This document shows positions 2,944 to 58,475 of a stretch of 64,000 nt of DNA, one piece after another. Location: positions 8,649 to 72,648 of the forward strand of contig CAZRML010000010.1 in the NCBI GenBank assembly GCA_964601205.1. Direction: 5' to 3'. The notes beneath the pieces were generated by a model that had not been told where the DNA came from, made no database searches, and worked only from the letters and a program-made list of their open reading frames with translations. This DNA is from an uncultured Actinomycetota bacterium (lineage in GTDB: Bacteria > Actinomycetota > Humimicrobiia > Humimicrobiales > Humimicrobiaceae). The position numbers and the translations under genes were made by a program. Positions within the stretch are counted from its first letter, which is position 1. Each line of letters begins with the position of its first letter.

Positions 2944-4542
2944 TCACTGGTAAAGATTGACTATCTTTATATTTTTAAAGCCTGTTAATCCCTTAAATTC
3001 TTCAAGTATCTCCGGAGTTACTTCGTTGTCCAGATTCAACCCCATGACTGCATCCCCGCTTAACTTCTTCCTGCCCACATGCATTGATGCAATATTTACT
3101 CCGAGTTTTCCAAAAGCAGTTCCTATTTTTCCTATCTGACCGGGGATATCCTTATATTTTATAAATGCCATATACCTGGAAGGAACCATATCTATTTCAA
3201 ATTTATCTATGGCTATAAATCTCGGGGTATCCTTTTTACCGGTAGTCGTCGCTGAAATAGAGAGCTCACCATTTCTGCCCTCTCCTGCCAGAGTGATCAA
3301 GTTCACATAATCTTTTGATTCGCCGCTTTTTTCCTCTTTCACCTTCAGGCCCATCCCCCTTGCCAGCAGGTCTGCATTTACCAGATTAACGTTCTCCGCT
3401 GAATATCTTTCAAGTATTTTTACCAGTATGAGGGAAGTCAGAATCCTTACATCAAATTCCGATACCCTGCCAAAATACCCTATTTTAAGGCTATTCAGAT
3501 TGCCCTCAAATAAATTTACAAAAAGGCTGCCCAGGTCTTCACACAGCTCAAAGAAAGGCCTGAGGATATCCATAAGTTCCGGCCTAATAGCAGGCGCATT
3601 TACAGGAAAGGCAGCTGTCCTTCCATTTAAAACATCTATAACCTGGTCAGCAATTATAGTTCCTGCCCTGTCCTGGGCTTCTTCCGTGGACGCTCCCAGA
3701 TGAGGGGTGCATACAACTTTTTCCAACTTAAAAACAGGCGAGTCAGTACATGGCTCTTTCTCGTAAACATCAAGCGCCGCTCCCCCTAACTGACCATCTT
3801 CAATGGCTTCTGCAAGATCTTTTTCAACTATAATTCCGCCTCTCGCTACATTCAGGACAATGGCCCCCTTTTTCATTTTATATAATTCCTTCTTATTAAA
3901 CATCCCTATAGTATCCTTATTCTTGGGAAGATGTATAGAAATAAAATCAGCTTCACTGTAAAGGTCCTCCAGTTTATTGGCTTTTTTTATCTCAAGCTGC
4001 CTGAACCTATCCTCGGAAACAAAAGGGTCATAGGCAATAACCTTTATACCCAGACAAATAGCTTTCCTGGCAACCAGCCCTCCTATTTGCCCGAAACCGA
4101 TTATTCCCAGGGTCTTTCCCTCAAGCTCTATGCCTTTAAATTTTGATTTTTCCCATTTTCCGCTTTTCAGAGAAAAATTAGCTTCTGGAATTTTTCTGGC
4201 AACTGAAAGCAGCAATGCTATTGTATGCTCTGCCACAGTAACTGCATTACTGGTAGGAGCATTAACCACCAGAATTCCTTTCCTGGTAGCAGTTGAGACG
4301 TCAATATTATCCACCCCTATCCCCGCTCTTCCTATAACTTCCAGCCTGTCAGAAGCTTCAATAATATCTGCTGTAAGCCTGGTGGCACTTCTTATAATTA
4401 CCGCATTTATACCTTTAATTACCTCTTTAAGCTTTTCTGGCGTAAGGTTCTTATTATCCTCCACCACAAAATGCTGCTCCAGCTTTTTCCTGGACTCTTC
4501 TGAAATACCGTCGGTAATTAATACTTTCTTATTCATATTCAT
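2944..4542 (-). CDS. serA: D-3-phosphoglycerate dehydrogenase, long form with ASB and ACT domains
   Basis: A 2-hydroxyacid dehydrogenase NAD-binding GxGxxG (GIIGFGQIGG) and a catalytic histidine region are present. The C-terminal ACT-like region and the 532-aa length are typical of type-I SerA. Confidence 0.8.
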   Translation of the reverse strand: MNMNKKVLITDGISEESRKKLEQHFVVEDNKNLTPEKLKEVIKGINAVIIRSATRLTADIIEASDRLEVIGRAGIGVDNIDVSTATRKGILVVNAPTSNAVTVAEHTIALLLSVARKIPEANFSLKSGKWEKSKFKGIELEGKTLGIIGFGQIGGLVARKAICLGIKVIAYDPFVSEDRFRQLEIKKANKLEDLYSEADFISIHLPKNKDTIGMFNKKELYKMKKGAIVLNVARGGIIVEKDLAEAIEDGQLGGAALDVYEKEPCTDSPVFKLEKVVCTPHLGASTEEAQDRAGTIIADQVIDVLNGRTAAFPVNAPAIRPELMDILRPFFELCEDLGSLFVNLFEGNLNSLKIGYFGRVSEFDVRILTSLILVKILERYSAENVNLVNADLLARGMGLKVKEEKSGESKDYVNLITLAGEGRNGELSISATTTGKKDTPRFIAIDKFEIDMVPSRYMAFIKYKDIPGQIGKIGTAFGKLGVNIASMHVGRKKLSGDAVMGLNLDNEVTPEILEEFKGLTGFKNIKIVNLYQ

Positions 4543-4569: not shown

Positions 4570-5736
4570 TCAAGAATCAAGATAATTATTTTCCATAAAT
4601 ATCTTTTCTGCTGCTGTAATTCCCGAGCCTATCTCAAATTTAAATCCGAGTTCTTCTAACGTCATCTCCAGTGCACTGATTGCAATAATAACATCAAACA
4701 TTCCAAAATATCCAAGATGCCCTATTCTTATTATTTTTCCCGAAAGTTTTCCCTGCCCTCCGGCAATGGTCACGCCATATTTTACTCTCATAATTTTAGT
4801 AAGTTCCCTGGCATCAATTCCTTCCGGAACATTAATGGAAGTTACCGAGTATCCCCTTTTATCTCTGTCTTTAACCAGAAGTTCCAGCCCGAGTTTTTCT
4901 GCTGCTTTCTGCGTGGCGAGTGCCATTACTCTGTGCCTGTTAAAGACTTTCTCCAGCCCTTCTTCCAGTAATAAATCCAGTGCCTTATTCATGGATACGA
5001 TTATTGATATGCCCGGAGTCCAGGGTGATTGCGGCGGTGTTTTATGTAAATAATTTCTTGCCGTTGCCAGATCAAAATAAAACCTGGGAATATCTGACTT
5101 TTCATTAAGCTTCCATGCTTTATCGCTAACGCTGATAAATGCAATTCCCGTTGGTGCGCTTAATGCCTTCTGGGAGCCGCCAATTACGACATCAAGGTTC
5201 CACTCGTCGGTCCTGAGGTCTGACGCTCCCAGGCCGCTTATGGCATCTACTATAAAAATTGCGGGATAATTTTTTACTATACCGGCTATAACTTCAACAT
5301 CATTTAAAGCTCCGGTTGATGTTTCACTAAACTGCAGTATTACTCCTTTTATCCCGGGATTTTCATCCAGAATCTTTTTAATATCACCGGGTTCTGCTGT
5401 ATCACCCCACTCATAATCAAGGGAAAATACCTCCAGACCGTATTTTACGGTCATCTTCTTAAATCTTTCACCAAAATTACCAATATTTACAACCAGAACT
5501 GCATCACCCCTGGAAAAGAAATTTACTATACTTGCCTCCATGGCGCCTGTCCCTGAAGAAGTCAGTATAAAAACATCATTTTTAGTTTGTAATAATCTCT
5601 TTAGCTTATCGGTCACCTCAACAAAAATTTTTGAAAATTCAGGAGACCTGTGATGCATAAGAGGCCTGGCATGTTCAAGTAAAACTTCCTCGGATATAGG
5701 CGTGGGTCCCGGAGTCATTACATATTTTTTTATCAT
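4570..5736 (-). CDS. class V aminotransferase (phosphoserine aminotransferase / serine-glyoxylate aminotransferase, AGXT-like)
   Basis: It has a class-V PLP aminotransferase fold (SSGTGAMEA; the GGSQKALSAPTG lysine region). It is adjacent and co-directional to serA, so a SerC-type role is inferred. Confidence 0.65.
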   Translation of the reverse strand: MIKKYVMTPGPTPISEEVLLEHARPLMHHRSPEFSKIFVEVTDKLKRLLQTKNDVFILTSSGTGAMEASIVNFFSRGDAVLVVNIGNFGERFKKMTVKYGLEVFSLDYEWGDTAEPGDIKKILDENPGIKGVILQFSETSTGALNDVEVIAGIVKNYPAIFIVDAISGLGASDLRTDEWNLDVVIGGSQKALSAPTGIAFISVSDKAWKLNEKSDIPRFYFDLATARNYLHKTPPQSPWTPGISIIVSMNKALDLLLEEGLEKVFNRHRVMALATQKAAEKLGLELLVKDRDKRGYSVTSINVPEGIDARELTKIMRVKYGVTIAGGQGKLSGKIIRIGHLGYFGMFDVIIAISALEMTLEELGFKFEIGSGITAAEKIFMENNYLDS

Positions 5737-9920: not shown

Positions 9921-10208
9921 TACCCCCCCCTGTAACCTGAAATTGATATTGATAACAATATTTATAATCATACATATATTATAATTTAAATTATATTTTC
10001 TTTTTTTTTGAGAGTCAATAAAATTATTAAATCATTATTATATTTTTAATAATACTTATTATAAAAAATTTATAAAAATAATTATGAATAGTTAAAAATT
10101 ATGAAAATAACTTTCCTTTTTTAATATATCTACTTTAAAGACAGTCGTAATGGAACTTTTTCACTTCCCATCTTTCCAGGTTTAAATAACTTTCAGAAGC
10201 ACAAGATT

Positions 10209-11762
10209 ATGAAATTAAATACTAATATGTATAATATTCTATATAATATACCGAATTACACTGACAGATACACTGAGATTATGAATAATTTAAACAGACA
10301 TTTTGAAAAAACTTATAGTACCGGTGAGATAAACGGGCCTGACGCTGCGGGAATAAGCAGAACTCCCCCTGTTACGGGCAACCGGGGTTATATAAAGCTA
10401 ACCGCAAAAATAACCGGAAATATAATAAGGGATATAAAATTTAAAGCAGAAGGTTGTAACCACACAAAAGCGGCGGCGGGTTGTCTTGCCGCTCTGGTTA
10501 AAAATAAAGATATACTTGATTCCACTCTTTTAACCGGAAAAGATATAGAACACCGTCTGGGAAAATTCCCTCCGGGGAAAAAGCATGTTCTTGATACTGC
10601 AATAAACGCCCTTAATAATCTTATTACAGATTATTTTTCGGGGCCCCTTTCTTCAAATATTTATAAAGAAAATAAGAATAAAGTAGTAGTAGCTATGAGT
10701 GGAGGTATTGACAGTTCAATGGCCGCAAAAATTTTAAAGGATAGGGGTCATCAACTAATAGGCGTAACCTTAAAATTACTTCCCGATGATTTTTACCGGA
10801 AAAAGCACAGAAACAATTTAATCCGGGAAAAAGATTTTAAAACAGCAAGGATGGTGGCATTAAAACTAAATATTCCCCATATAGTCCTGGATCTAACCCT
10901 GCCATTTAAGGATAAAATAATTGAGCCTTTCTACGCTAATTATATAAAAGGTCTCACCCCCAATCCCTGCGTGGAATGCAATAAGTATATTAAATTTGGG
11001 ATTCTTCTTGAAAAAGTTAAAAATTTTGGCGCGGCTTTTCTTGCTACCGGACACTATTGCAGGATTGAAAAATCAAAGGATTCAGGATTATACGAACTAA
11101 AAAAAGGCGCCGATGAAAATAAAGACCAGAGCTACATGCTTTGGAGACTGGGCCAGAAGCAGATATCAAAGATAAAAACCCCTCTGGGAGAATCTTCAAA
11201 AATTAACATAAAAAAGGAAACCAGAAAAATTTTCCCTTTCCTGGAAGAGAAAAATGAAAGCCAGGATATCTGTTTTATACCCGAAAATAATTATCATTCA
11301 TTCATAAAGTCCAGATTAATAAACATTAAAGAGGGGCTGATACTGGACACCGGGGGTAACATTATTGGTACCCATAAAGGATATTTTTTTTACACTATCG
11401 GACAGAGAAAAGGACTGGGCATAAGCCGCACTGAGCCTCTTTATGTAAAAGAGATATTACCGGATAAAAATATAATAGTAGCAGGCGATGAAAAAGATAT
11501 AATGCAAAAAACATTTAGTGTGACAAAAAGTAATTTTATTGCCGGAAACCCTCCCGGAAATATTTTCAGGGCAACGGTAAAAATAAGATATAAAAGCAAT
11601 GAATATCCAGCAGAAATAAAAATTACCGGCAAAAATACAGCTGCCATAATTTTCGATGAGTCGCAAAAAGCAATCACCCCGGGCCAATCTGCTGTTTTCT
11701 ATCATGGTGATATACTTTTAGGAGGAGGGGTAATTACAAAAATAGAATCTGATAGAGCCTGA
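10209..11762 (+). CDS. mnmA: tRNA-specific 2-thiouridylase MnmA fused to an N-terminal degenerate IscU/NifU-like domain
   Basis: The C-terminal ~360 aa carry the PP-loop VVAMSGGIDSS and the catalytic-Cys region NPCVECNKYIKFG of MnmA. The N-terminal ~150 aa align to the IscU pattern (IRDIKFKAEGCNHTKAAAGCLA; PPGKKHVLDTAINAL), but two of the three conserved cysteines are absent. Confidence 0.7.
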   Translation: MKLNTNMYNILYNIPNYTDRYTEIMNNLNRHFEKTYSTGEINGPDAAGISRTPPVTGNRGYIKLTAKITGNIIRDIKFKAEGCNHTKAAAGCLAALVKNKDILDSTLLTGKDIEHRLGKFPPGKKHVLDTAINALNNLITDYFSGPLSSNIYKENKNKVVVAMSGGIDSSMAAKILKDRGHQLIGVTLKLLPDDFYRKKHRNNLIREKDFKTARMVALKLNIPHIVLDLTLPFKDKIIEPFYANYIKGLTPNPCVECNKYIKFGILLEKVKNFGAAFLATGHYCRIEKSKDSGLYELKKGADENKDQSYMLWRLGQKQISKIKTPLGESSKINIKKETRKIFPFLEEKNESQDICFIPENNYHSFIKSRLINIKEGLILDTGGNIIGTHKGYFFYTIGQRKGLGISRTEPLYVKEILPDKNIIVAGDEKDIMQKTFSVTKSNFIAGNPPGNIFRATVKIRYKSNEYPAEIKITGKNTAAIIFDESQKAITPGQSAVFYHGDILLGGGVITKIESDRA

Positions 11763-11825
11763 ATAACTTTTGGAATAATAAACAATTCAACAACAAAAAA
11801 ATAAATAAAAAATTTTAAAATCCTA

Positions 11826-11854
11826 TTGACATAAATATTGGTATCTGCTATATT
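11826..11854 (+). promoter_or_regulatory. sigma-70-like promoter (TTGACA-17 nt-TATATT)
   Basis: TTGACA lies at 11826-11831, followed by a 17-nt spacer and TATATT at 11849-11854. This is a consensus -35 and a near-consensus -10 in an intergenic region. Confidence 0.45.
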
Positions 11855-11860
11855 AGGAGT

Positions 11861-12036
11861 TGCCTTGGAAAAGGAGGTAACTTTCAGAATTAACTGAAAT
11901 TTACAAACGAAAGAATGTAAAAAGTAAGTTTTAAATTCTAAAAGAACCTGAGAAAAGTTCTGAGGTTAAGGTCCCAAGATGTTAAGTAGCCTAAGGCGTG
12001 AGCTAAGGTAAAAGATAACTTGGGATCCTTTTTTTA
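11861..12036 (+). ncRNA. candidate small RNA or regulatory leader (~175 nt) of unknown family, from the promoter at 11826 to a hairpin plus T7 run near 12030
   Basis: A strong promoter lies immediately upstream. There is no ORF with a start codon. Internal stems include AGAAC/GTTCT and CCCAAG...CTTGGG. The motifs TAAGG/CTAAGG recur four times within 60 nt. The region ends GGGATCCTTTTTTT. ilvE starts 280 nt further on. Confidence 0.3.
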
Positions 12037-12315
12037 TATTAAGTTTTTCTTCATATCCATTTCAAAATTCCCGGAAGATAAATACTTTATTTTTATTTAC
12101 TTCCATAATTGCCGCCGCTTATCATAATTTTAATCACCATCCCCTGCAAACGGCTCCGGTATTAAACTGTAGATTATAAATATCAGATAAACCCGGCATC
12201 TTTTTTTATTCTTTTAAATAAAAATAATAAAAATTTCAATCTTAACCGTAAATTAATTGCAAAATAAAAGTAAAATAAGTAAAATAAAAAATTAAAATTT
12301 AAAAAAGAGGAAATC

Positions 12316-13347: not shown

Positions 13348-16300
13348 CTAACCGTTCTTTTTGTTAATAATATTTGAACAAAATTCAGCATAATTACAGA
13401 ACTTCTTACAGCTGTTCTTGAAGTTAGCTTTAAAATTTTTATCTCTGATGTTTTTTATCTCGGCAAGAATATCCTTTTTCAGCTGTTTTATTTCATCACT
13501 ATTAACCGTAATTGATTTTTCTACCCCATCCCCCAGATAAAAAATGCATCCTTTTATATCACTTACCGGTTTACTGTAAATTTCTGATAACGCTGCTATA
13601 TAAGCTTTCATCTGGAACCCGGCAGAATTTTCGAGATTATTTTGATTTTTATTATTTTTATTTTTAGAATAAGAAGATAATTTATAATCAATAATCCTTA
13701 GCTTATTATCCGTCTTTATATCAACCCTATCAAACCTGCCAACAATATAGCAATCCTTGATCTTCCAGTAAAAAAGCTGCTCCAGCATTATTGAACTTAC
13801 TTCAGAAAAATTCCATAAATCACTGTTCAGAAAATTCTCCAGGTATTTTTCTATCTTTTTATCATCAAAATGGCCCATAACCTTTTCTTTTAAAATTTTA
13901 TTATGGAACCCGGTCAGAGTTATATTTTTTAAATACCCGTGGACTTCTTCTCCTCTGGCAAGTTGTTCGCTTTCTTTTTCAGGTATAAAATAAATATGTT
14001 TCCATCTGTATAGCAGCGGGCATTTTTTATGATCAATAATCCAGGTTAAAGGGAAAAATCTTCTGGTATTAATATTATCTTCTGGATAGCTTCCATAAGA
14101 TAATTCAAAATTAATTTTATCTACAATTTCCTGAACCCTGCTATTTTCTACCTGTGTATCCCCGGATTTTATAACCCTGTTTGCCAGAACCTTCTGATAA
14201 AGTTCCCACCGGTTCTCATCCTGTACCCTGATATTTTTACTATCTTTCTTATCAGAATTGATAAAGCTCAGGACATCTTTAAAGTTTTCATGATCTTTGT
14301 ATGATTTTTCATCGTAATTTGTTCTTATAAAATCCAGGCCTTCTTTATTTATAACCCTCAGGCTGTTACTGTTTACAATATCCTCAAAGAAAGGCATGAT
14401 TTCTTTTGGCTTAACGCTTTCACTGGCAGAAGCTAAATTATCTTCATATTCACTTGATGACAGAATGAGAATCTTCTTTGCTCTGCTGCATCCCACATAA
14501 AAAATTCTTCTTTCTTCTTCTATTTTTATATCTTTTAAAGACTCAGAAAAGCTCCTGGCACTATTAAAATCTTTTTTCCTCTTATATATGCTGTTATCTT
14601 TTCTCAGCTCTGAGGGGACCATAAATCCTCCGGACGAAATTCTTGCCTTATAATCATTTTTCCACAATCCCGGCAGGAAAACTACTTCAAATTCAAGCCC
14701 TTTAGCCGCGTGGATGCTCATTATTTTTACAGAATTCTCGCCTGAAAATTCCACGCTTTCCGGGTCATCATAATCTGTTTTCGCAACATCTTTAAGAAAA
14801 GTTATAAAGGCCCTAAGATTATTTTCTATATAACTTTTCTGAAAGTCAGAGGCCACTCTTATAATATTCTCAATATTTTTAATTTTTTTCCGGAATACTG
14901 GACCGGGACTTGATTTTAATTCATTTATTATGCCCGAATCTTCTATAATCAAGCTGATTAATTCCCTAAGCTCCAATTCTCCTGATTTACTTATATAAAG
15001 CTTCAGACTGGAAAGAAAACTGCCCAATCTTTCTTTTGTCTCTCTACTTAAATAAGTATTCTTTTTATAATCTGCTATCCCTTCAATTATATTTATACTT
15101 TCACTGGGATCCGTGTAATTTCTTTTAATAAAAAAAATATCCCTGTCGCAAATTTTATATTTTTCTGATTTAAGCAGATACACTATTGATATCTCATCAT
15201 TTATATTCTCTATAACCCTGAGCCATGAAATAATAAATAAAATCTCCGGCTCAAAGAAAAAATTCTTTCCCCCTATCAGCTCAAATTTAATACCGTTAGC
15301 TTCCAGTTCCCCGGTAATCTTTTCAAACTTTTTCCTTCTGGCAAGAATAGCCATTTGCTTTAATTTAATCCCTCCTGCCGACAGATACTTTATAATCCCT
15401 GCAATCTCCGCTGCCTCTTCCTCATGAGTTTTCTTATAATAAAATATAACCTCTGAGGGTTTACTTTTATCTTCAGACTTTAGCTCTTTTTTAAATCTTT
15501 TACTATTTGAAGAAATAACCCTGTTTATTGAGTTTATGATGTTATTCCCGGATCTGAAATTAGTGGTAAGAAAAAAATCATGCACATTACTGTTCTTAAA
15601 TTCTTCAAGCCTGTGAAAATTTAATATGTTCTCCACGCTGGCTCCCCGAAAAGAATAAATACCCTGGTCATCATCTCCCACAACCACTATTCTGTTGTTT
15701 CCGGGTTTATAAAGCATGGATAGAAGGTATGCCTGTGCTATATTGGTATCCTGGAATTCATCAACAAATATATATTCATATCTCTGCTGGTACCAGGCTC
15801 TCATTGACTTTCTCTCCCGGAGTAAAAGATAAGGCATAAATACCTGGTCGGGGTAATCTATACAATTACTTTCAATCTTCCTTCTTTCATATCGCTGATA
15901 AATAGTGAAAAGCTCTCGCTGGATATCTATTGATTTTTCTTCTTCATTTTTTAGAGCCTTACTTTTGTATCCGGAAAGAATTTTTTCATAATTATTTAGA
16001 TAATATTCAAATTCAGCCACAGATATAAGGTTGTTCTTTAAATTTTCTATGTAATTAAGTAACTTCTGAACGAATTCTCCAGCCTTTTTCCCGGGTTTTA
16101 AATACTTTAGATTGGACTCATTAAATATTTCATATAATATCTGCCAGGACTGGCTGTTATTTATAATTTTAAAATCTTTCCCTAGGCCAAACTCAAAACT
16201 GTGCTCGCTTATTATTTCATTTCCAAAAGAATTAAAGGTGAATACATTAATTCCTTCTATGTCTATGTCTTTCTTAACATTTTCCTTAATTCTTACTCTC

Positions 16301-16491
16301 ATATTCTCAGCAGCATTTCGGGTGAAAGTAAGCGCAAGTATTTTATCCGGACTGCATAACCCATCCTTTAGAATTTTTATAATATTACCGGTCAGAACCA
16401 TTGTTTTGCCGGAACCCGCACAGGCAATTATTCTTTTTATATCATCTGTGCTATTTACTATATCAAGCTGTTCTTTTGTTTCTTTAACCAT
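13348..16491 (-). CDS. addA: AddA/AdnB-like helicase-nuclease subunit (active UvrD/PcrA-type motor + C-terminal PD-(D/E)xK nuclease with Cys cluster)
   Basis: Walker A CAGSGKT is present, with motif Ia LTFTRNAAENM and motif II DEFQDTN. The C-terminal region has C-x3-C-x5-C (CKKFCNYAEFC). The likely ATG at 16491 overlaps the upstream gene's stop by 8 nt. The track's start at 16521 is a GTG. Confidence 0.65.
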   Translation of the reverse strand: MVKETKEQLDIVNSTDDIKRIIACAGSGKTMVLTGNIIKILKDGLCSPDKILALTFTRNAAENMRVRIKENVKKDIDIEGINVFTFNSFGNEIISEHSFEFGLGKDFKIINNSQSWQILYEIFNESNLKYLKPGKKAGEFVQKLLNYIENLKNNLISVAEFEYYLNNYEKILSGYKSKALKNEEEKSIDIQRELFTIYQRYERRKIESNCIDYPDQVFMPYLLLRERKSMRAWYQQRYEYIFVDEFQDTNIAQAYLLSMLYKPGNNRIVVVGDDDQGIYSFRGASVENILNFHRLEEFKNSNVHDFFLTTNFRSGNNIINSINRVISSNSKRFKKELKSEDKSKPSEVIFYYKKTHEEEAAEIAGIIKYLSAGGIKLKQMAILARRKKFEKITGELEANGIKFELIGGKNFFFEPEILFIISWLRVIENINDEISIVYLLKSEKYKICDRDIFFIKRNYTDPSESINIIEGIADYKKNTYLSRETKERLGSFLSSLKLYISKSGELELRELISLIIEDSGIINELKSSPGPVFRKKIKNIENIIRVASDFQKSYIENNLRAFITFLKDVAKTDYDDPESVEFSGENSVKIMSIHAAKGLEFEVVFLPGLWKNDYKARISSGGFMVPSELRKDNSIYKRKKDFNSARSFSESLKDIKIEEERRIFYVGCSRAKKILILSSSEYEDNLASASESVKPKEIMPFFEDIVNSNSLRVINKEGLDFIRTNYDEKSYKDHENFKDVLSFINSDKKDSKNIRVQDENRWELYQKVLANRVIKSGDTQVENSRVQEIVDKINFELSYGSYPEDNINTRRFFPLTWIIDHKKCPLLYRWKHIYFIPEKESEQLARGEEVHGYLKNITLTGFHNKILKEKVMGHFDDKKIEKYLENFLNSDLWNFSEVSSIMLEQLFYWKIKDCYIVGRFDRVDIKTDNKLRIIDYKLSSYSKNKNNKNQNNLENSAGFQMKAYIAALSEIYSKPVSDIKGCIFYLGDGVEKSITVNSDEIKQLKKDILAEIKNIRDKNFKANFKNSCKKFCNYAEFCSNIINKKNG

Positions 16492-19400
16492 AGTATTTTG
16501 GACATAAAATCTTAAATCCACAATTTAAACATGAATTATAACTTTTCGGTATGGCATTAAATTCTTCCTTCTTTATTTTAGCAATGCTCTCCCTCAGAAT
16601 ATCTTTAATTTCATTACCCTCATAATACTCATCGGCCACCACTGCCACTGGCTTCTTTAAATCTCCAGGGAAAATATATTGCATCTTTACACTCATAGAT
16701 TTAAAATCCCCGAAGTCTTTGCTCAGGCTCAGAGCCAGTCTGTACATTTTTAACTGAAGCTCTTCTCTAAGTTGCTTTTCATTATACGAAGATGAACTGG
16801 ATTTATAATCCACAAGCTCTATATTGTCTTTATCAGGAAAGTTAATCTGGTCTATCCTTCCAGTAATTTTTTCACCATCAAGACTAAAAGAAAATCCTTT
16901 CTCAACTATGGACTTATGGGGATTGGGAGGCATTTGGTTCTCAAAAAAATTTTTTAATTGTATCAGCGCTTTCTGTTTTAGATCCCTTTTTAAAAATTCA
17001 AATTCAAAATTAAACCTGTCAAATACATCCTCTATTATTTTCCTCAACCTCTCCCATTTGAAGTCTTTTTTATTTTTACTTTCAAAAAACAATTTTATTA
17101 TCTGGTGATAAATTTTCCCTATAATGAGGCTCAGGTTTTCCTCCTCCTTTAAACTAAAGTAATACTTTATCTTGTATTTAAAAGGGCATTCCCTGAAAGT
17201 ATTTATGCCACTGTAAGAAAATGATAATGGAAGTGCGCTGAAAGGGTTTTTATTATTTTTGGTAGGCTCAATAAAGCTCCACCACTCGCGGGGATTATAA
17301 AAATATTTTAAAATAATAATTTTATCCAGATAGCTATCATTTTCAACTTTTAAGTTTTTTTCTATCCTGGCAGAGGCAACCAGTGCCTTTTTTCTTACCA
17401 GCCACAAATTATTTAAATCTACATCAGACAGTATCCCTGGTTTAATTTTTTTCTTATCTTCAGGTGGCTTTTTTTTACTATTCTCTTCTTCTTTCTTTAT
17501 GTATTCATTACGCACGGAATTTTTAATTTTCTTATATTCAGGACCTAAATTTTTATAGATATCTTTTATATTCTCAAAGAAAATAGACTTCCCTCTTCCG
17601 CTTGAAGTTATATATAGATATTCTCCCGCCCTCGTGATTCCATTATAAAAAAGCCTCATTTCGTTATAAAGATGCTCTCTTTTTAGCTCTTCGGGCTCAA
17701 GAGTTTTTGCACCATTTAAATAATTAAATATCTGTACATCAAAAGCCTGGGTATAGGTAAACTTTGCAGGTAAGTAATTTTTGTTAATAAAAGGTATAAA
17801 TACGGCCCTGAATTCCAGTCCCTTGCACTGGTGAAAACTTAAGATACTGACTGAACCCTCCTGTATTATATCTTTTGTACTTTCTTCTATCTCTTCTGTA
17901 AATTTACTTTCTAAAATATAATCAATAAAATTAATATATGATTCAACATCATCGGGAGTATTATTGGCACAAAAATCTTTTACATCACTTAAAAAATCAC
18001 TTACATTACTCCACTGGTTTTTTTTATAGACCTTATTGTTGCCTCCTGTCAATAACTTAATGACACCTGCTTTTTTATTACGTACGAGCTCCAGTAAAAA
18101 ACCAAAAGCATCTTTTCTCTCCATGACCCCTGCCAATTTATAAACTTCCGAAATAAAGTCCCTGACTTTAGAAATCTCTTCATGCTCGCCATTCTTTTTA
18201 TTTCCCCGGGCACATTGAACTTTAAGATAATCCCACAGATTGCTGAAACCACCGCCACTGTTGACACTTTCCAGATAAGCTCCCTTAATCTTTTTAAAAT
18301 ATAATGGTTCCAGGTTTATTGATTCAGAGAGTACCACATTTTCCAGAAGATTATCAATTTTAGAAGTAAATTCTTTATCCATTTTATAATTAGGTTTACT
18401 GCTATTCTTATCATCCTCTGGAATTTTTCTGCCCGTATATTCTACTTTTCCCAGCGCGACAAGGAATCTTAAAAAGTTCAGCAGATATCTGACAAGCCCG
18501 TTATCAAGAATGCTTCTTGTCCCCCTTCTCAAAAAGGGAATTCCATTCTGCAACAGGGCATTTTCAATAATATGTGTCTCGTAGCCCAGCCCTTTGACAA
18601 TTATCGCCATTTCCTCAAATCTTACATCCCTGCTCAGTAATAGAAACTTAATTCTGCGACAGATGTAATTAGCTTCTTCCAGTAACGTTTGAAATTCCTT
18701 AACATGTAATTCGCCGGGGGATTTACTATAAGAAACACTGATATCTCTGGGTATTCTATTTCCAACCATGCTTATAAATTTTCTGGAGATTTCATTTATT
18801 ATGGGTATACTTCTGTAGTTCTTATTCAGGAAAAATATATTTTTAGAATCAAGACTGCTGTAAACTGATTCAAAAATATTCGTTGTAGAGCCTCTGAAAG
18901 AATAAATTGACTGGTCATTATTTCCAAAAAAAATACAGTTTGAATTTGAAATATAATTTATAATTTCAAATTGAGCCTTATTTACCTCATGAAGTTCATC
19001 AACCAGTATATATTCATAATTATCTTTATAGTAATCTCTTATTTCTTTCTGATTCTTAAGCAAGCTAACCGTTTCTTCCAGTAACATCCCGTAATTGTAC
19101 AGTTGATTTTTTTTGAGCTCTTCAACATATCTCATGTATATACCTGCCAGTTCTGAAAGCGCAGGATTTGAAAATGGTGTAAATTTCTTTAGCAGTTCTG
19201 CGGGAGTAAACAGGTTTTCCTGGGCACGAAGTATAAAATCAAATACCTCCTGGATGTAGCTATTTTCTATATAAGGATTGCGGTTTATATACCTGTATGT
19301 ATGGGAATATTTTCTTTTATCAAGTTTTTTTATAACTTCTTTAAGAAGTTTCCATTGCTGGACCGAATTTAATATTTTTATTTGTCCAAAGGGATTATCT

Positions 19401-19738
19401 CCGCTATTAATCCTTAAAGATTTATTACCCTTTGTCCCGTCACCGTATAAAAAAACTTTTGCTTCCTCTATAAAATGTGTACAAAAAGAATGAAATGTTT
19501 CTATGGGAATCTCAAATATACTACTGTTGATTAAAGAAGTCGTTTTTTCCCTGATTAATTTGGACCACCTGCGATTAAAACAAAAAACTAAAAGCTTTTC
19601 AGGATTTATCTTTCTGTCATTAATTAGATACCCGACCAGTTCTAAAAGTGTATGGGTCTTACCGGAACCGGGGGGACCAATTACCAGAAAACTGCCCCCT
19701 TTTTTCTTAATAACATCTATCAGTCTATCATCCAGCAT
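16484..19738 (-). CDS. addB: AddB/AdnA-like helicase-nuclease subunit (degenerate helicase motifs, C-terminal RecB-type nuclease with Fe-S-type Cys cluster)
   Basis: Walker A GPPGSGKT is present but motif II is degenerate (VDELHE). The C-terminus CLNCGFKILC is C-x2-C-x5-C, typical of AddB Fe-S nuclease domains. It is translationally coupled to the downstream subunit. Confidence 0.6.
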   Translation of the reverse strand: MLDDRLIDVIKKKGGSFLVIGPPGSGKTHTLLELVGYLINDRKINPEKLLVFCFNRRWSKLIREKTTSLINSSIFEIPIETFHSFCTHFIEEAKVFLYGDGTKGNKSLRINSGDNPFGQIKILNSVQQWKLLKEVIKKLDKRKYSHTYRYINRNPYIENSYIQEVFDFILRAQENLFTPAELLKKFTPFSNPALSELAGIYMRYVEELKKNQLYNYGMLLEETVSLLKNQKEIRDYYKDNYEYILVDELHEVNKAQFEIINYISNSNCIFFGNNDQSIYSFRGSTTNIFESVYSSLDSKNIFFLNKNYRSIPIINEISRKFISMVGNRIPRDISVSYSKSPGELHVKEFQTLLEEANYICRRIKFLLLSRDVRFEEMAIIVKGLGYETHIIENALLQNGIPFLRRGTRSILDNGLVRYLLNFLRFLVALGKVEYTGRKIPEDDKNSSKPNYKMDKEFTSKIDNLLENVVLSESINLEPLYFKKIKGAYLESVNSGGGFSNLWDYLKVQCARGNKKNGEHEEISKVRDFISEVYKLAGVMERKDAFGFLLELVRNKKAGVIKLLTGGNNKVYKKNQWSNVSDFLSDVKDFCANNTPDDVESYINFIDYILESKFTEEIEESTKDIIQEGSVSILSFHQCKGLEFRAVFIPFINKNYLPAKFTYTQAFDVQIFNYLNGAKTLEPEELKREHLYNEMRLFYNGITRAGEYLYITSSGRGKSIFFENIKDIYKNLGPEYKKIKNSVRNEYIKKEEENSKKKPPEDKKKIKPGILSDVDLNNLWLVRKKALVASARIEKNLKVENDSYLDKIIILKYFYNPREWWSFIEPTKNNKNPFSALPLSFSYSGINTFRECPFKYKIKYYFSLKEEENLSLIIGKIYHQIIKLFFESKNKKDFKWERLRKIIEDVFDRFNFEFEFLKRDLKQKALIQLKNFFENQMPPNPHKSIVEKGFSFSLDGEKITGRIDQINFPDKDNIELVDYKSSSSSYNEKQLREELQLKMYRLALSLSKDFGDFKSMSVKMQYIFPGDLKKPVAVVADEYYEGNEIKDILRESIAKIKKEEFNAIPKSYNSCLNCGFKILCPKYYG

Positions 19739-20171: not shown

Positions 20172-20801
20172 TTATTTATCGTTATCTTTTTCCTCAGAAA
20201 TCTCTTCGCCCCCACGGGGTTCTTCTTCCATTTCTATTTCACCGGTCTGAATTTTGCTTTCTTCTTTCCCCTCTTTACCCGGAGCCAGACCAGTAATAGT
20301 AAGATTGGTTTTCAGTACCTTAATACCCAGCTTTTCAGATACAACACCCCTGGCTACATTTATTATCTCCTGCATCTTACCGGGGATATCAACACTTTCA
20401 CCAAGCATGGCATTCATATTAATTATAATTCCGCCTGTTTTGGGAATTATTTTCACTTTTATATCCTTCAGGCCATCTACTTTTACTACTTCATTCCTGA
20501 TCTGGCTGGACACAGTTTCCAGGGTCACCATGGCATTACCTTCCCTGGAGCTGGAAATATTAGCGACTTTTATCCTTCTTCTATAAAACTCAATTAATAA
20601 TAAGAATACACTAATTACAAATATAGCCAGCAGAGCAAGGAAGCCAACGAATTTATTTACAGTAGTAGAAGGATCCAGAATTTTTGTAGACACATCTGCC
20701 CAGGTAAAATATCCTGCAAAAATATTTACCATAGAGACAACCGATATTCCGATTAAAAAGATTAATATCAGTACAACGATTATTTTATTAAAAATATTCA
20801 A
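20172..20801 (-). CDS. membrane-anchored Asp23/AmaP-like (alkaline-shock family) protein with acidic C-terminus
   Basis: An N-terminal TM segment is followed by a region (VDIPGKMQEIINVARGVVSEKLGIKV) that resembles the Asp23/DUF322 core. Weak call. Confidence 0.3.
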   Translation of the reverse strand: MNIFNKIIVVLILIFLIGISVVSMVNIFAGYFTWADVSTKILDPSTTVNKFVGFLALLAIFVISVFLLLIEFYRRRIKVANISSSREGNAMVTLETVSSQIRNEVVKVDGLKDIKVKIIPKTGGIIINMNAMLGESVDIPGKMQEIINVARGVVSEKLGIKVLKTNLTITGLAPGKEGKEESKIQTGEIEMEEEPRGGEEISEEKDNDK

Positions 20802-50050: not shown

Positions 50051-50587
50051 TCAGGGAATAAAAAATGTCAATACACCTTCGGATACTACCAGCACTATAT
50101 CCTGAATATAGTAAATAGTTCCCAGAAAACTATCATAATTTGCAGCAACCCTGTCTGTATTCTTAGCTATATAATCATTTATTTTTTCATTATTTTCAAG
50201 CCCGCTATTTGATATTTTAATAACCTTAGAATCTCCGGCAAAATCCATATTCAAATTATTCTCTGCAGCTTCAATAATCCTTGAGGGCGATTTCAACTCG
50301 GATATTTTTAATTCCAGGCGGTCATTCCTTTCATTTTCAAGCAAAATCATTTCATTAATTTCATTTATCTCTTCCTGGTAATTTATACCCTGTATCTTTA
50401 AACCAACATTCAGGAGAAAACCCATGCAGGCAAAAATTATAACCAGAACAAATATATAGAATAACCCGCCACCTGTATATATTATATTTTTATCTATTCT
50501 GCCGTCATCTTCTGTTTTTACCAGATACAAAAGCGGCTTTGTTCTACTTTTATAAATTTGCTGTTTTTCTGCTAATCTTAAACTCAT
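50051..50587 (-). CDS. ftsL: FtsL-like septum formation initiator (single TM, coiled coil)
   Basis: Its position lies between rsmH and ftsI. It has a TM helix followed by a coiled coil. Confidence 0.55.
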   Translation of the reverse strand: MSLRLAEKQQIYKSRTKPLLYLVKTEDDGRIDKNIIYTGGGLFYIFVLVIIFACMGFLLNVGLKIQGINYQEEINEINEMILLENERNDRLELKISELKSPSRIIEAAENNLNMDFAGDSKVIKISNSGLENNEKINDYIAKNTDRVAANYDSFLGTIYYIQDIVLVVSEGVLTFFIP

Positions 50588-53940: not shown

Positions 53941-54510
53941 TTACTGAAGTTCCAGGTACAGTATCATTATCCGGCTCCTGTTTTCTTCAAGTCCTTTTAT
54001 CAGTACGTTTACAACTTTATCTTTATCATTACTGTAGTAGGTGAATTTATAAACAGGAATATTTTCATTCTCTTCCTCATCGAGGAATTCTTCTTCAACA
54101 CCTTCTTTACTTTCTTCAAATATTACTGAGCGACTCCAGATTGATTGAATTTTTTTGCTTTTATAAAATTCCTCCACTGTCTCAGGGCATTCGGGTGTTT
54201 CTAATAAAATATAGAGGAGCTCCTCGCTTCCTTCCATCTTCTTTACTTCTTTTATCTCAGAACCCTCGTAGTAGAAACTATTAAATACCTCAAGAAAACC
54301 TTCACTCTCCAGGAGCTGATCAAAATTTTCCTCAGAATTCTCCTCTGAACTATTATTACTCCCTGCGGTATTTTCTATTTCTGCACCTTCCGCTGCCTGG
54401 CTTTCTGTGCTTCCCTGCGTATTATTTATAGAAAAACAGGAAACTGTGACAAATGGCACTAAAAATAAACCAACAGCCAATAATAAAATAGTTATTCTCT
54501 TCTTTTTCAT
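53941..54510 (-). CDS. acidic lipoprotein of unknown function
   Basis: It has a signal peptide with a VSC lipobox and is Glu-rich. No family. Confidence 0.4.
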   Translation of the reverse strand: MKKKRITILLLAVGLFLVPFVTVSCFSINNTQGSTESQAAEGAEIENTAGSNNSSEENSEENFDQLLESEGFLEVFNSFYYEGSEIKEVKKMEGSEELLYILLETPECPETVEEFYKSKKIQSIWSRSVIFEESKEGVEEEFLDEEENENIPVYKFTYYSNDKDKVVNVLIKGLEENRSRIMILYLELQ

Positions 54511-54516
54511 AATTAT

Positions 54517-54990
54517 CTAACCTGCTAAAATAAAATTAATAAAAATTTTAAATGTTACATAAAGACAGAACACTATTTCTATCGAAATCATTATATAGCT
54601 CAAAACAATTTCAAGACCCTGATTCTTTTCTTTTAAATATAACAACGGCTTACTTATGAATTTTTTTATTTTCGGTAAAAATTGTATCATAGAATAGAGA
54701 GTATAACCAATAAGTATTGAACTCCCAACTGTAACTATCATCTCATCAAAAAAACAATTACTGTATAGGAAATAACCTATTTCTATCATGTTCAAAATCA
54801 CTATTACCGAAAAGGACAGAACTACGGAGATAGCACTCGGCGTCCTATCACCCTGACCATCCGACATATAATCTTCCAGTTTTTGAATTTCTCTATGGAC
54901 AATATAATTATTACTGGTTCTAATCATAAACCTCAAACTTGAAATATATAACCCCAGTAATATTATAGATAAAATTAGTAATAAAAACAT
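54517..54990 (-). CDS. hypothetical 4-TM membrane protein
   Basis: It is hydrophobic and stops 6 nt before the lipoprotein gene. Confidence 0.35.
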   Translation of the reverse strand: MFLLLILSIILLGLYISSLRFMIRTSNNYIVHREIQKLEDYMSDGQGDRTPSAISVVLSFSVIVILNMIEIGYFLYSNCFFDEMIVTVGSSILIGYTLYSMIQFLPKIKKFISKPLLYLKEKNQGLEIVLSYIMISIEIVFCLYVTFKIFINFILAG

Positions 54991-55630: not shown

Positions 55631-56074
55631 ATGAAAAATAGAGATATCATTATAATAATCATCCTTACCATAATTTTAGTAATAGTTATAACAGCTTCCA
55701 TACAGAAAAAGCAGGAAATAGAAGATATTTATCTCAGTAACAGCAAAGATTCCACCTTTGAGGAATTACAGTCCGGTAAATCATACAATTTCAAAAATAA
55801 CGATTCCGATATATACCTTATAATGAAAGTAAAAAATTTAAAGGAAGATGATGAAATAAAAGTGAAATGGTCCAGAATAGAAAAAGACCATAACAAAAAT
55901 GATAATTATATCACAATACAGCAAAATACTATTAATCCCGGGCAAAACGGCTCTGGTAAAATTGTAGTAATGATGTTAAAAAGAGACAACACTTATGCTG
56001 AAGGAAAATACTGTGTTGAAGCTTACTTAAACGCTGACCACAAGATAACCAAAACTTTTTCTATAGATTCCTGA
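55631..56074 (+). CDS. hypothetical membrane-anchored protein
   Basis: It has an N-terminal TM followed by a beta-rich domain. No family. Confidence 0.35.
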   Translation: MKNRDIIIIIILTIILVIVITASIQKKQEIEDIYLSNSKDSTFEELQSGKSYNFKNNDSDIYLIMKVKNLKEDDEIKVKWSRIEKDHNKNDNYITIQQNTINPGQNGSGKIVVMMLKRDNTYAEGKYCVEAYLNADHKITKTFSIDS

Positions 56075-57113: not shown

Positions 57114-58475
57114 TTATTTATTCTCCTTTAAAAAAAATTTTTTCAATTCTTTTTTAAAAACATTTTCGTCATCTATCATAACAGGTATATTATTCAAATA
57201 TATTATATCTTTATTATTTTTATATGCATAATCTGTCAGAACATCTACCGAGGCTGCTTTTAATTCTGAAAGTATGGTTTCGTAATTTCTACTTACCTTA
57301 AGGTCTTCTTTTAGCTTTTTTCTATCCGCGAGGTTAAAACTCATTTTTACCACCTTGCAACCATAATGCTTCTCCAGGTAATCTTTTATTTTAGATTCAA
57401 TGACTCTACTTGATGTCATTGCCACAAATATTCTTTTCCCATATATATCAGATAATGGCTCGGGTCTAAAAATTGTCTTAAAAACTGGAGCCCCTGGATT
57501 TATCTTCTTTATCTCTCTTTCCATAAAATCTATTTTATCCTTATCTGCCACCGGCTCCTCGCACATGGTTAATATTATTAAATCAGCAGACATTATCCTG
57601 TAAGTTCCGAGATACCCCACAATGCTTTCCCACTTCTGGCCTGCGCCTATTACGCATATGCAGAAATCGGTCTTCACATCCGGAACAGAGGCACCGCTGC
57701 CTTCCACTATAATCAAATCAGGATTTAGTTTCTCAGCAATACTTATGCCCTCTTTTATATTGCTCATAAATATCTTACCTCCAAAACCCCCTCCGCATCT
57801 CCTGCATCCAACAGTAGTAACTCTCCCGGTCAGCGCATCTTCTATATAGTCGGAACTTGCATGCATGCCTTTATTATTAATCTCAAGCAGATATTCTGAG
57901 TCAACATTTATATTGCCCCCTTCTATTACATGTGGTTTCGCGGGGCCACCCCTGCCCATAGCAACCACGCAGACATCAACATTCTCACTCTTAAATATTT
58001 TTGATACATATGAGCTGATTGCCGTTTTGCCGATTCTCTTTCCGGTTCCGATAATACTCACAGAAGGCTTCATGCAAATGATATCTTCCTTTTCGTAAGA
58101 AAATAAAAAATCCGGTCCCATGTAGCTGCACTTATGGTCAAGACAGAAAGAAGCTATTTTCATCCTTATAATATAATTTACCACCGGTTCATCGCTTAAG
58201 TCATAAACTATATCCGGTTTAAAATATTCAAGTGCATTCTTAAAATCTATATCAAGATCCCTGATTATATAGACCTTTTCTCCAAAAAAATCCTCCATAT
58301 CATCCAGTATTAATTTCTCGGTCCCTCCGAGAAAAATAATACCCTTAAAATTACCGGTATAGATTTTCCTGAGCATACTAACCGCATCATAGGTTACCTG
58401 GGGATAGTGTTCACCATCAATTAATGCTACGAGATTTTTACCTTTATTATTTTTTTTCTTCAATAAATTTATCAC
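57114..58475 (-). CDS. putative cyclic 2,3-diphosphoglycerate synthetase (cDPGS-like P-loop protein)
   Basis: It is 453 aa, with the double-lysine P-loop IIGTGKRIGKTAIS. It sits 3 nt upstream of the 2PGK gene. The size and architecture are as in Methanothermus cDPGS. Confidence 0.4.
   Translation of the reverse strand: MINLLKKKNNKGKNLVALIDGEHYPQVTYDAVSMLRKIYTGNFKGIIFLGGTEKLILDDMEDFFGEKVYIIRDLDIDFKNALEYFKPDIVYDLSDEPVVNYIIRMKIASFCLDHKCSYMGPDFLFSYEKEDIICMKPSVSIIGTGKRIGKTAISSYVSKIFKSENVDVCVVAMGRGGPAKPHVIEGGNINVDSEYLLEINNKGMHASSDYIEDALTGRVTTVGCRRCGGGFGGKIFMSNIKEGISIAEKLNPDLIIVEGSGASVPDVKTDFCICVIGAGQKWESIVGYLGTYRIMSADLIILTMCEEPVADKDKIDFMEREIKKINPGAPVFKTIFRPEPLSDIYGKRIFVAMTSSRVIESKIKDYLEKHYGCKVVKMSFNLADRKKLKEDLKVSRNYETILSELKAASVDVLTDYAYKNNKDIIYLNNIPVMIDDENVFKKELKKFFLKENK

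Follow-up and report, generated by a model that had tools for sequence, protein, structure and literature searches.

The window analysed here is a 64-kb stretch (64,000 nucleotides) of a contig from an uncultured Actinomycetota bacterium of the family Humimicrobiaceae, and the gene under study is an open reading frame (ORF) on its plus strand, 10209–11762, which encodes 517 aa plus stop without interruption. The product is a genuine single-gene fusion of a domain derived from the iron–sulfur (Fe-S) scaffold protein IscU/NifU with a complete C-type MnmA, a tRNA thiolase (tRNA 2-thiouridine-34 synthase). Met25 (10281–10283) is the probable true start codon, giving a protein of 493 aa, because relatives of 92% and 73% identity begin at its equivalent (MENLNRHF and MKNFERHS, respectively); homologues are 486–490 aa long. 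The 24 codons 5′ of Met25 (MKLNTNMYNILYNIPNYTDRYTEI, 10209–10280) have no counterpart in relatives and are probably untranslated leader. Residues are numbered from the start of the ORF, and all features of the gene are on the plus strand.

The IscU/NifU-fold domain (hereafter the N-domain) occupies residues 30–143 (10296–10637), on the evidence of Pfam, Foldseek and the ratio of non-synonymous to synonymous substitution rates (dN/dS, ω). Pfam NifU_N matched it with 50.1 bits (gathering cut-off, 22 bits), and a scan restricted to the first 160 aa gave 53.5 bits (E=3.4e-14). A linker (SGPLSSNIYKENKN, residues 144–157, 10638–10679), kept in fused proteins and partly in unfused relatives, leads into the MnmA half, which comprises a PP-loop (HUP) catalytic domain (residues 158–358, 10680–11282; tRNA_Me_trans, 207.8 bits), a PRC-barrel middle domain (residues 365–426, 11301–11486; tRNA_Me_trans_M, 65.2 bits) and a C-terminal beta-barrel domain (residues 434–509, 11508–11735; tRNA_Me_trans_C, 78.5 bits). 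An AlphaFold2 (AF2) model of the protein, built on 72 family sequences, was confident (predicted local distance difference test (pLDDT) 89.5, predicted template modelling score (pTM) 0.88). In Foldseek comparisons its MnmA body matched E. coli MnmA (2der/2det) with a template modelling score (TM) of 0.91 and a root-mean-square deviation (rmsd) of 1.8–1.9 Å, and its N-terminal 120 residues matched IscU structures with TM 0.74–0.90 and rmsd 1.4–2.5 Å. A preliminary description of this gene, made from the sequence alone, had assigned the N-terminal region to the IscU/NifU pattern, and that assignment is borne out.

That the fusion might be an artefact, produced by faulty sequencing or assembly or by a frameshift that joined two genes, is barely credible: the ORF is continuous, an identical protein is present in an independent record (a JGI contig of 77.6 kb), and the same NifU_N+MnmA architecture, with the linker conserved, recurs in about 80 clusters among the 120 best from the database (38–92% identity) and in over 13 independent assemblies. 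Among species-representative genomes, carriers were uncultured Actinomycetota (Ca. Hydromicrobium or Humimicrobiaceae, class Humimicrobiia) and one metagenome-assembled genome of the Solirubrobacterales. When a profile built from the fusion was run over 1.84 billion representatives at 50% identity, it retrieved 8,685 MnmA-like proteins at E<1e-30, and both halves were spanned in 7 of the top 150. The IscU–MnmA fusion, which a few lineages outside the Humimicrobiia-like Actinomycetota also have, is therefore conserved, yet rare among MnmAs, and no published description of a NifU/IscU–MnmA fusion was found in the literature searched.

The scaffold site of the N-domain is largely gone. IscU binds clusters through three cysteines, here called C1, C2 and C3 (E. 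coli Cys37, Cys63 and Cys106), and through Asp39 and His105. In HMMER alignments to solved IscU proteins (7c8m, 4eb5, 2z7e) the PVCGD motif has become PVTGN, so that C1 is Thr56 and the aspartate Asn58 (Thr56-Gly57-Asn58, 10374–10382, in place of IscU Cys37-Gly-Asp39); the GC motif is kept, with Cys83 (10455–10457) as the equivalent of C2 (E. coli Cys63) and the sole scaffold cysteine left; and HC has become HV, with Val127 replacing C3. This last change lies in an LPPVK-like segment, FPPGKKHV (10566–10589), that retains Lys124 (E. coli Lys103) and His126 (His105). The replacement of the first cysteine motif and the HV reading of the third, both noticed in the preliminary description, thus hold in alignment. 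Its remark that cysteines survive in the central GC…AAAGC segment holds for Cys83, which is the conserved C2, and fails for Cys92, which is not conserved in relatives, most of which have Tyr there.

The N-domain also missed every scaffold equivalog by a wide interval (NifU_clost, 52.5 vs 187.9 bits; IscU, 30.1 vs 192.4; NifU_proper, 24.1 vs 273.3), as well as that for SufU (SUF_scaf_2, 26.6 bits vs 92.5). SufU (5xt5) offers a precedent for an IscU-fold protein turned from scaffold into an accessory of desulfurase sulfur transfer, but its zinc ligands, C1, C2, C3 and Asp, are all in place, with C1 as the persulfide acceptor, whereas the window domain keeps C2 alone. The domain is thus a member of the NifU_N superfamily that fails the ligand and equivalog tests for both IscU/NifU and SufU. 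With C1, Asp and C3 all lost it cannot scaffold clusters, as the preliminary description had supposed. Compared with IscU and clostridial NifU (7c8m, 4eb5_C, 2z7e, 3lvl_A; TIGR03419), it shares the fold, the N-terminal helix, the GC of C2, FPPGK and the equivalents of Lys103 and His105; it differs in the exchange of C1/Asp39/C3 for Thr/Asn/Val, its sub-cut-off scores, its fusion to MnmA and the lack of an adjoining desulfurase gene.

Across 85 fused proteins, C3 was Cys in 4 and C1 in about half, the C1-motif loop being hypervariable between close relatives. C2 was Cys in 79/85, and was missing in P0003, P0013, P0086, P0094 and P0099; the N-domains of P0013 and P0094 are entirely free of cysteine. 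The domain can thus be retained without any particular one of its cysteines, which speaks against C2 as an obligatory step of a persulfide relay. A fused persulfide carrier would be expected to preserve one acceptor cysteine strictly, and neither C2 nor C1 (38/78 members of the fused clade) is so preserved. The window N-domain is not a scaffold and, to judge from these losses, is probably no longer an obligatory sulfur (persulfide) carrier. What the family does conserve in this domain are the motifs FxxPxNxG, IxDIxFxAxGC and LGxFPxxK.

The MnmA half, by comparison with its appended domain, is intact. It passed the MnmA equivalog models of NCBIfam (NF001138, 384.2 bits vs a cut-off of 284; TIGR00420, 327 vs 236.95), and its ATP-binding/adenylation motif, the PP-loop SGGIDS (residues 164–169, 10698–10715), was invariant in 72 aligned family members. 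Also invariant in the family are Cys254-Val-Glu-Cys257 (10968–10979), a CxxC motif at the positions of E. coli Asp99/Cys102, and Cys355 (within SQDICF, 11271–11273), at the position of E. coli Cys199; the combined pattern CxxC…C (NPCVECN…SQDICF in the window protein) was found in 84/85 fused proteins. In alignments to solved MnmA, C254, C257 and C355 fall at the ligand positions, and the best sequence matches of this half were recently deposited MnmA structures (PDB 9hln, 9i7r, 9hlv, 9hm3 and 9hmj), the chain of 9hln reading NPCVMCNK, likewise CxxC. Possession of CxxC…C instead of DxxC…C defines C-type MnmA, in which a [4Fe-4S] cluster is essential in Thermus thermophilus (Shigi et al. 2020, PMC7025502). 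The three cysteines are accordingly predicted, from motif and alignment, to be cluster ligands rather than persulfide-carrying catalytic cysteines.

In many other C-type MnmAs a loop further upstream carries a pair of adjacent cysteines, ‘CC’. In the window protein this loop reads KKHRNNLI (residues 198–205, 10800–10823), without CC, and has a pLDDT below 50 in the AF2 model. CC-less C-type enzymes are already known from Campylobacter and Helicobacter (Shigi et al. 2020, PMC7025502), so the missing pair leaves the protein within the C-type, and by all sequence and fold criteria tested the MnmA half is a C-type enzyme of the CC-less variant. The preliminary description of a normal MnmA with catalytic cysteines was therefore right as to the PP-loop and the completeness of the enzyme, and needs amendment as to its type and the predicted role of its cysteines. 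Relative to T. thermophilus MnmA (TtMnmA), the window protein shares the PP-loop SGGxDS, the three-domain fold and CxxC…C at cluster-ligand positions, and differs by its N-terminal IscU-like domain (~125 aa), the absence of CC and an extra cysteine, Cys284 (within GHYC, 11058–11060). This last residue completes the six cysteines of the full protein (83, 92, 254, 257, 284 and 355). It is clade-specific, with Cys found in 76 of 79 fused members of the clade and all 23 unfused MnmAs nested among them, and Val or Ala in distant fusions with a complete triad and in 34/37 other MnmAs; it follows lineage, not fusion.

More distant fusions show less decayed N-domains. The complete IscU triad is present in P0109, P0110, P0114, P0119, P0121, P0123 and P0124, while C3 is missing from P0197 and L075 and C2 from P0122 and P0126. 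A plausible antecedent is found in Clostridium sediminicola (L026), which has an iscR-nifS-nifU-mnmA operon whose nifU, with a full CGD/GC/HCS triad, ends 3 nt before a C-type mnmA. A tblastn match had made this species a candidate cultured carrier of the fusion, which was rejected since nifU and mnmA are separate adjacent ORFs. In Halanaerobium spp. (L028–L039), iscR-nifS immediately precedes an unfused C-type mnmA and nifU is missing from between them, a dedicated desulfurase–MnmA operon in cultured organisms. These operons have C-type MnmA in common with the window gene, and that of C. sediminicola also the order nifU then mnmA; the clostridial operon differs in its separate genes, complete NifU triad and adjacent NifS, where the window has one polypeptide, a NifU part that has degenerated and no neighbouring NifS. 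Given this adjacency of nifU and mnmA, gene joining is the simplest origin, and the fusion most likely arose by the joining of neighbouring nifU and mnmA genes in an operon of the iscR-nifS-nifU-mnmA type.

Within the fused clade, the state of C1 in the N-domain and that of CC in the MnmA half were tightly coupled. Of 78 fused clade members, 34 carried the two features and 40, the window protein included, lacked both; C1 occurred alone in 4 and CC alone in none. Parsimony on a tree of the MnmA domain required ~7 changes for each character, 5–7 of them on the same branch, and a tree of the N-domain from which the C1 loop had been excluded repeated the same-branch co-changes. A single null 5′ allele spreading by recombination was considered as the cause of the co-loss and was rejected on the N-domain tree and a nearest-neighbour analysis: the nearest N-domain relatives of each null lineage were both-present proteins of its own sub-clade, as where P0075/P0082 (ANRN with KPCSPP/KDSAAP) stand beside P0076/P0080 (SCRN with KTCCSP). 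The co-losses are thus independent and arose in situ, on at least five branches.

CC does not depend on an N-domain as such, being retained in 10/23 of the nested unfused MnmAs and in most ordinary C-type MnmAs. The states observed were an N-domain with C1 together with CC, CC without an N-domain, and neither, and never an N-domain lacking C1 together with CC, a pattern expected if C1 is the route by which anything arrives at CC in the fused proteins. That the two are lost together, and CC never kept without C1, suggests that they act together, either as a sulfur relay or as a shared site. C2 was lost only in lineages already without C1 and CC, so that Cys83 of the window protein may be a lagging remnant. 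The equivalent of C1 in IscU, C37, has been argued to be its most exposed cysteine and the likeliest first persulfide acceptor (Shi et al. 2010). In TtMnmA, the CC cysteines (Cys55/Cys56) were dispensable in a standard assay that contained 0.1 mM Na2S (Shigi et al. 2020, PMC7025502); since the mutants were assayed with Na2S as the only donor, a role for CC in the delivery of persulfide or cluster falls outside that test.

These patterns lead us to a tentative proposal, held with rather less than even confidence, that the fusion family represents a ‘self-servicing’ MnmA in which C1 and CC would load sulfur or cluster onto the catalytic [4Fe-4S] site, a path abandoned by lineages of the window type. 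C3 would have been lost first in the Humimicrobiia-like Actinomycetota clade, after which the exposed C1 of the IscU-like domain would have paired functionally with CC in a flexible MnmA loop; the most likely role is a built-in hand-off, in which a desulfurase-derived persulfide, or a nascent cluster, would have passed to C1 (with or without C2), on to CC and so to the open iron site of the MnmA cluster. For the window protein itself, our confidence is evenly divided on the following reading: it would belong to one of at least five sub-lineages that dismantled the C1–CC path (C1, Asp, C3 and CC being gone), its N-domain, folded and non-catalytic, would persist as an accessory module on which purifying selection is relaxed, possibly docking a partner or giving structural support to MnmA, and the intact MnmA body presumably takes sulfide or persulfide directly at the cluster. 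Direct use of sulfide is perhaps also the reason why window-type lineages abandoned the path.

Selection on the N-domain was estimated by the pairwise Nei–Gojobori method. N-domain ω was 0.10–0.25 in C1-retaining (both-present) pairs vs 0.18–0.49 in C1-less (null) pairs (window/L008, 0.41; window/L007, 0.20, P=6e-8; L011/L018, 0.49), a contrast that, with few pairs, is to be read as a trend only, and ω of the MnmA body was uniform at 0.11–0.18. In every pair N-domain ω was significantly below 1 (P=0.029 to 6e-8). The N-domain is thus not neutral, and constraint looks relaxed in cysteine-poor lineages.

The domain has also been discarded outright. Unfused MnmAs, 64–69% identical to the MnmA half of the window protein and one of them from the same metagenome, occupy the syntenic site; the three verified unfused forms were never monophyletic in 60 bootstrap trees, and their deletions have three different end-points around the linker, which indicates that the N-domain was cleanly removed at least three times independently. 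The bacillithiol genes bshA-bshB-bshC, upstream in all three unfused loci, were considered as a substitute for the N-domain and rejected because many fused loci share the cluster; in a paper on bacillithiol, MnmA appears solely as a blot control. In most Humimicrobiia-like relatives bshA-bshB-bshC lie divergently ~60–100 nt upstream of mnmA, fused or unfused (L010:6362-9950, L012–L017, L090:3462-6942), and they are absent at window positions 9972–10280 and from this site throughout the window sub-lineage (window, L007, L008, L005/L011).

Such deletions in close relatives, together with the stepwise decay of ligands (C3, then C1 with CC, then C2) and the higher ω of null lineages, would be natural if the N-domain were a functionless relic, kept only because the essential MnmA body would suffer if the N-terminus misfolded or were deleted in part. 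This we regard as rather improbable, given that ω is significantly below 1 in each pair, including window/L007, that ~40 null-state proteins (45–92% identity) show no frameshifts or internal deletions, that the three N-domain motifs are still conserved and that the AF2 fold is confident.

The preliminary description had suggested a different role, that of a persulfide-relay or IscS-docking domain in place of separate carriers. Applied to this protein, such a model would have the IscU-like domain, dead as a scaffold, dock a desulfurase of the IscS/NifS type and relay persulfide through its remaining cysteine, Cys83, to MnmA. Purifying selection on the domain and the high frequency of Cys at C2 would suit such a relay, as would the possibility of a disulfide between E. 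coli IscU Cys63 and IscS Cys328 (cited in Shi 2010). So would the surface residues equivalent to IscS contacts, which in the 85 fused proteins were kept at Lys103 (K/R in 81), Lys59 (K/R in 75), Gly62 (80) and, as Phe, Tyr11 (70); in IscU, Lys103 contacts both IscS and HscA, and the N-terminal helix, which the N-domain retains, is needed for IscS binding (Shi 2010). The positions of Gly38, Val40 and Gly64 are not kept, however, and contact positions as a whole showed no significant excess of conservation over the average of the domain (0.65 vs 0.59, P=0.17, permutation test), while lost ligand positions were less conserved than that average (P=0.044). Docking of IscS by the window N-domain would on these residues be possible, if weakly so. 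Against the relay itself stand the lineages without C2, two of them with cysteine-free N-domains, the repeated deletion of the domain in sister lineages, and the fact that the cysteines co-varying with MnmA are C1 and CC, neither of which the window protein has. The proposal of a relay through Cys83 is weakened accordingly, and we consider it unlikely.

A relay would also call for a desulfurase. No cysteine desulfurase, scaffold or carrier gene was present in the scanned parts of the window, and the search for iscS or nifS that the preliminary description had suggested was equally negative for 27 related loci, covered to ±10 kb on either side of the fusion; nor was a NifS-like gene found beside more distant fused members. 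The Aminotran_5 gene at 4570–5736 (−) was examined as the missing desulfurase and rejected as a glyoxylate/SerC-type aminotransferase: its best match was a BhcA-like aspartate/serine–glyoxylate aminotransferase (303 bits, below the cut-off of 650). It adjoins a phosphoglycerate dehydrogenase gene (2944–4542, −) and is probably a SerC substitute.

A further alternative, non-canonical metal or Fe-S binding, would have Cys83 cap the open iron of the MnmA cluster, or a cluster bridge a dimer, or Cys83, His85, Cys92 and His126 form a site. Cys83 and His126 are indeed kept in the window protein, the high pTM suggests a fixed arrangement of the domains, and C1, C2 and CC would furnish four thiolates in relatives. 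We judge it very unlikely, as neither Cys92 nor His85 is conserved in the family, residues equivalent to His105 are mostly Tyr or Asp, and cysteine-free N-domains exist.

Several points weigh against the proposed C1–CC hand-off and its dismantling in the window lineage. Co-variation was assessed with neighbour-joining trees and parsimony mapping. The C1 and CC loops both have low confidence in AF2 models of the window protein and of a both-present relative, P0004. Binding of a cluster by the window MnmA is itself predicted from identity of motif with T. thermophilus MnmA. No partner desulfurase was identified in the loci surveyed above, and IscS-contact residues showed no significant enrichment in conservation. 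C2 is still Cys in 35/40 null-state proteins, which, with purifying selection on the domain, means that some cysteine-dependent function may persist.

Delivery modules brought near a PP-loop thiolase are familiar from other systems, namely YrvO–MnmA in B. subtilis, the IscS–TusA–TusBCD–TusE–MnmA chain of E. coli and the rhodanese domain of ThiI, the last a precedent for a fused sulfur-carrier domain. None of these has an IscU-fold module, and the window protein is without the candidate carrier cysteines, C1 and CC. By analogy, it most resembles a PP-loop thiolase to which a delivery module has been added, as in ThiI–rhodanese or YrvO–MnmA, the module here being stripped of its reactive residues. 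The modified nucleoside s2U is still present in E. coli without ISC and SUF (Zhou 2021), a result that bears on the maturation of the MnmA cluster.

Other features of the loci were recorded. The complete-triad fusion P0110 (L089:178-6719) is divergent from an adjoining sulfur-assimilation cluster that encodes sulfite reductase, TusA, PAPS reductase, ATP sulfurylase, TauE, a JAB protease, a ThiS–PALP (CysO/CysM-like) fusion and a second PALP enzyme. A rare protein unrelated to the IscU fusion, P0264 (527 aa), has an N-terminal peptide deformylase (EGCLS…HEIDH) fused to C-type MnmA. Rfam and promoter/terminator scans of the flanks of the window gene yielded nothing relevant to it. Between the fusion and ilvE lies a gap of 553 nt (11763–12315), where relatives have a minus-strand DUF5661 gene that the window is without; the gap gave no Rfam hit and contains, ahead of ilvE, a strong sigma-70-like site (11826–11854, 11/12 matches with a TG extension). 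Two overlapping genes of ~1,050–1,080 aa, 13348–16521 (−) and 16484–19738 (−), each encode UvrD-helicase and PDDEXK_1 nuclease domains; they form an AddAB-like pair, syntenic in all relatives. Six ORFs of 147–453 aa had no Pfam match (57114–58475, 53941–54510, 54517–54990, 55631–56074, 50051–50587 and 20172–20801), of which 50051–50587 occupies the ftsL position in an mraZ-mraW…ftsA-ftsZ cluster and the 453-aa ORF (57114–58475) is flanked by a Metallophos gene on one side and an AAA/Zeta-toxin-like gene on the other.

The fusions form a series, from the complete triad through C1+C2+CC to the cysteine-stripped form and clean deletions of the domain, that makes both the maturation of the MnmA cluster and the role of the ‘dispensable’ CC directly testable, and the coupling of C1 and CC across the family is a testable lead on how MnmA is supplied with sulfur and cluster. 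The window gene, as a degenerate member, is a natural ‘relay-null’ control and an example of the decay of an Fe-S scaffold after fusion. Should the self-servicing proposal be true, it would give the CC motif a function and provide one answer to the question of how MnmA is matured and supplied.

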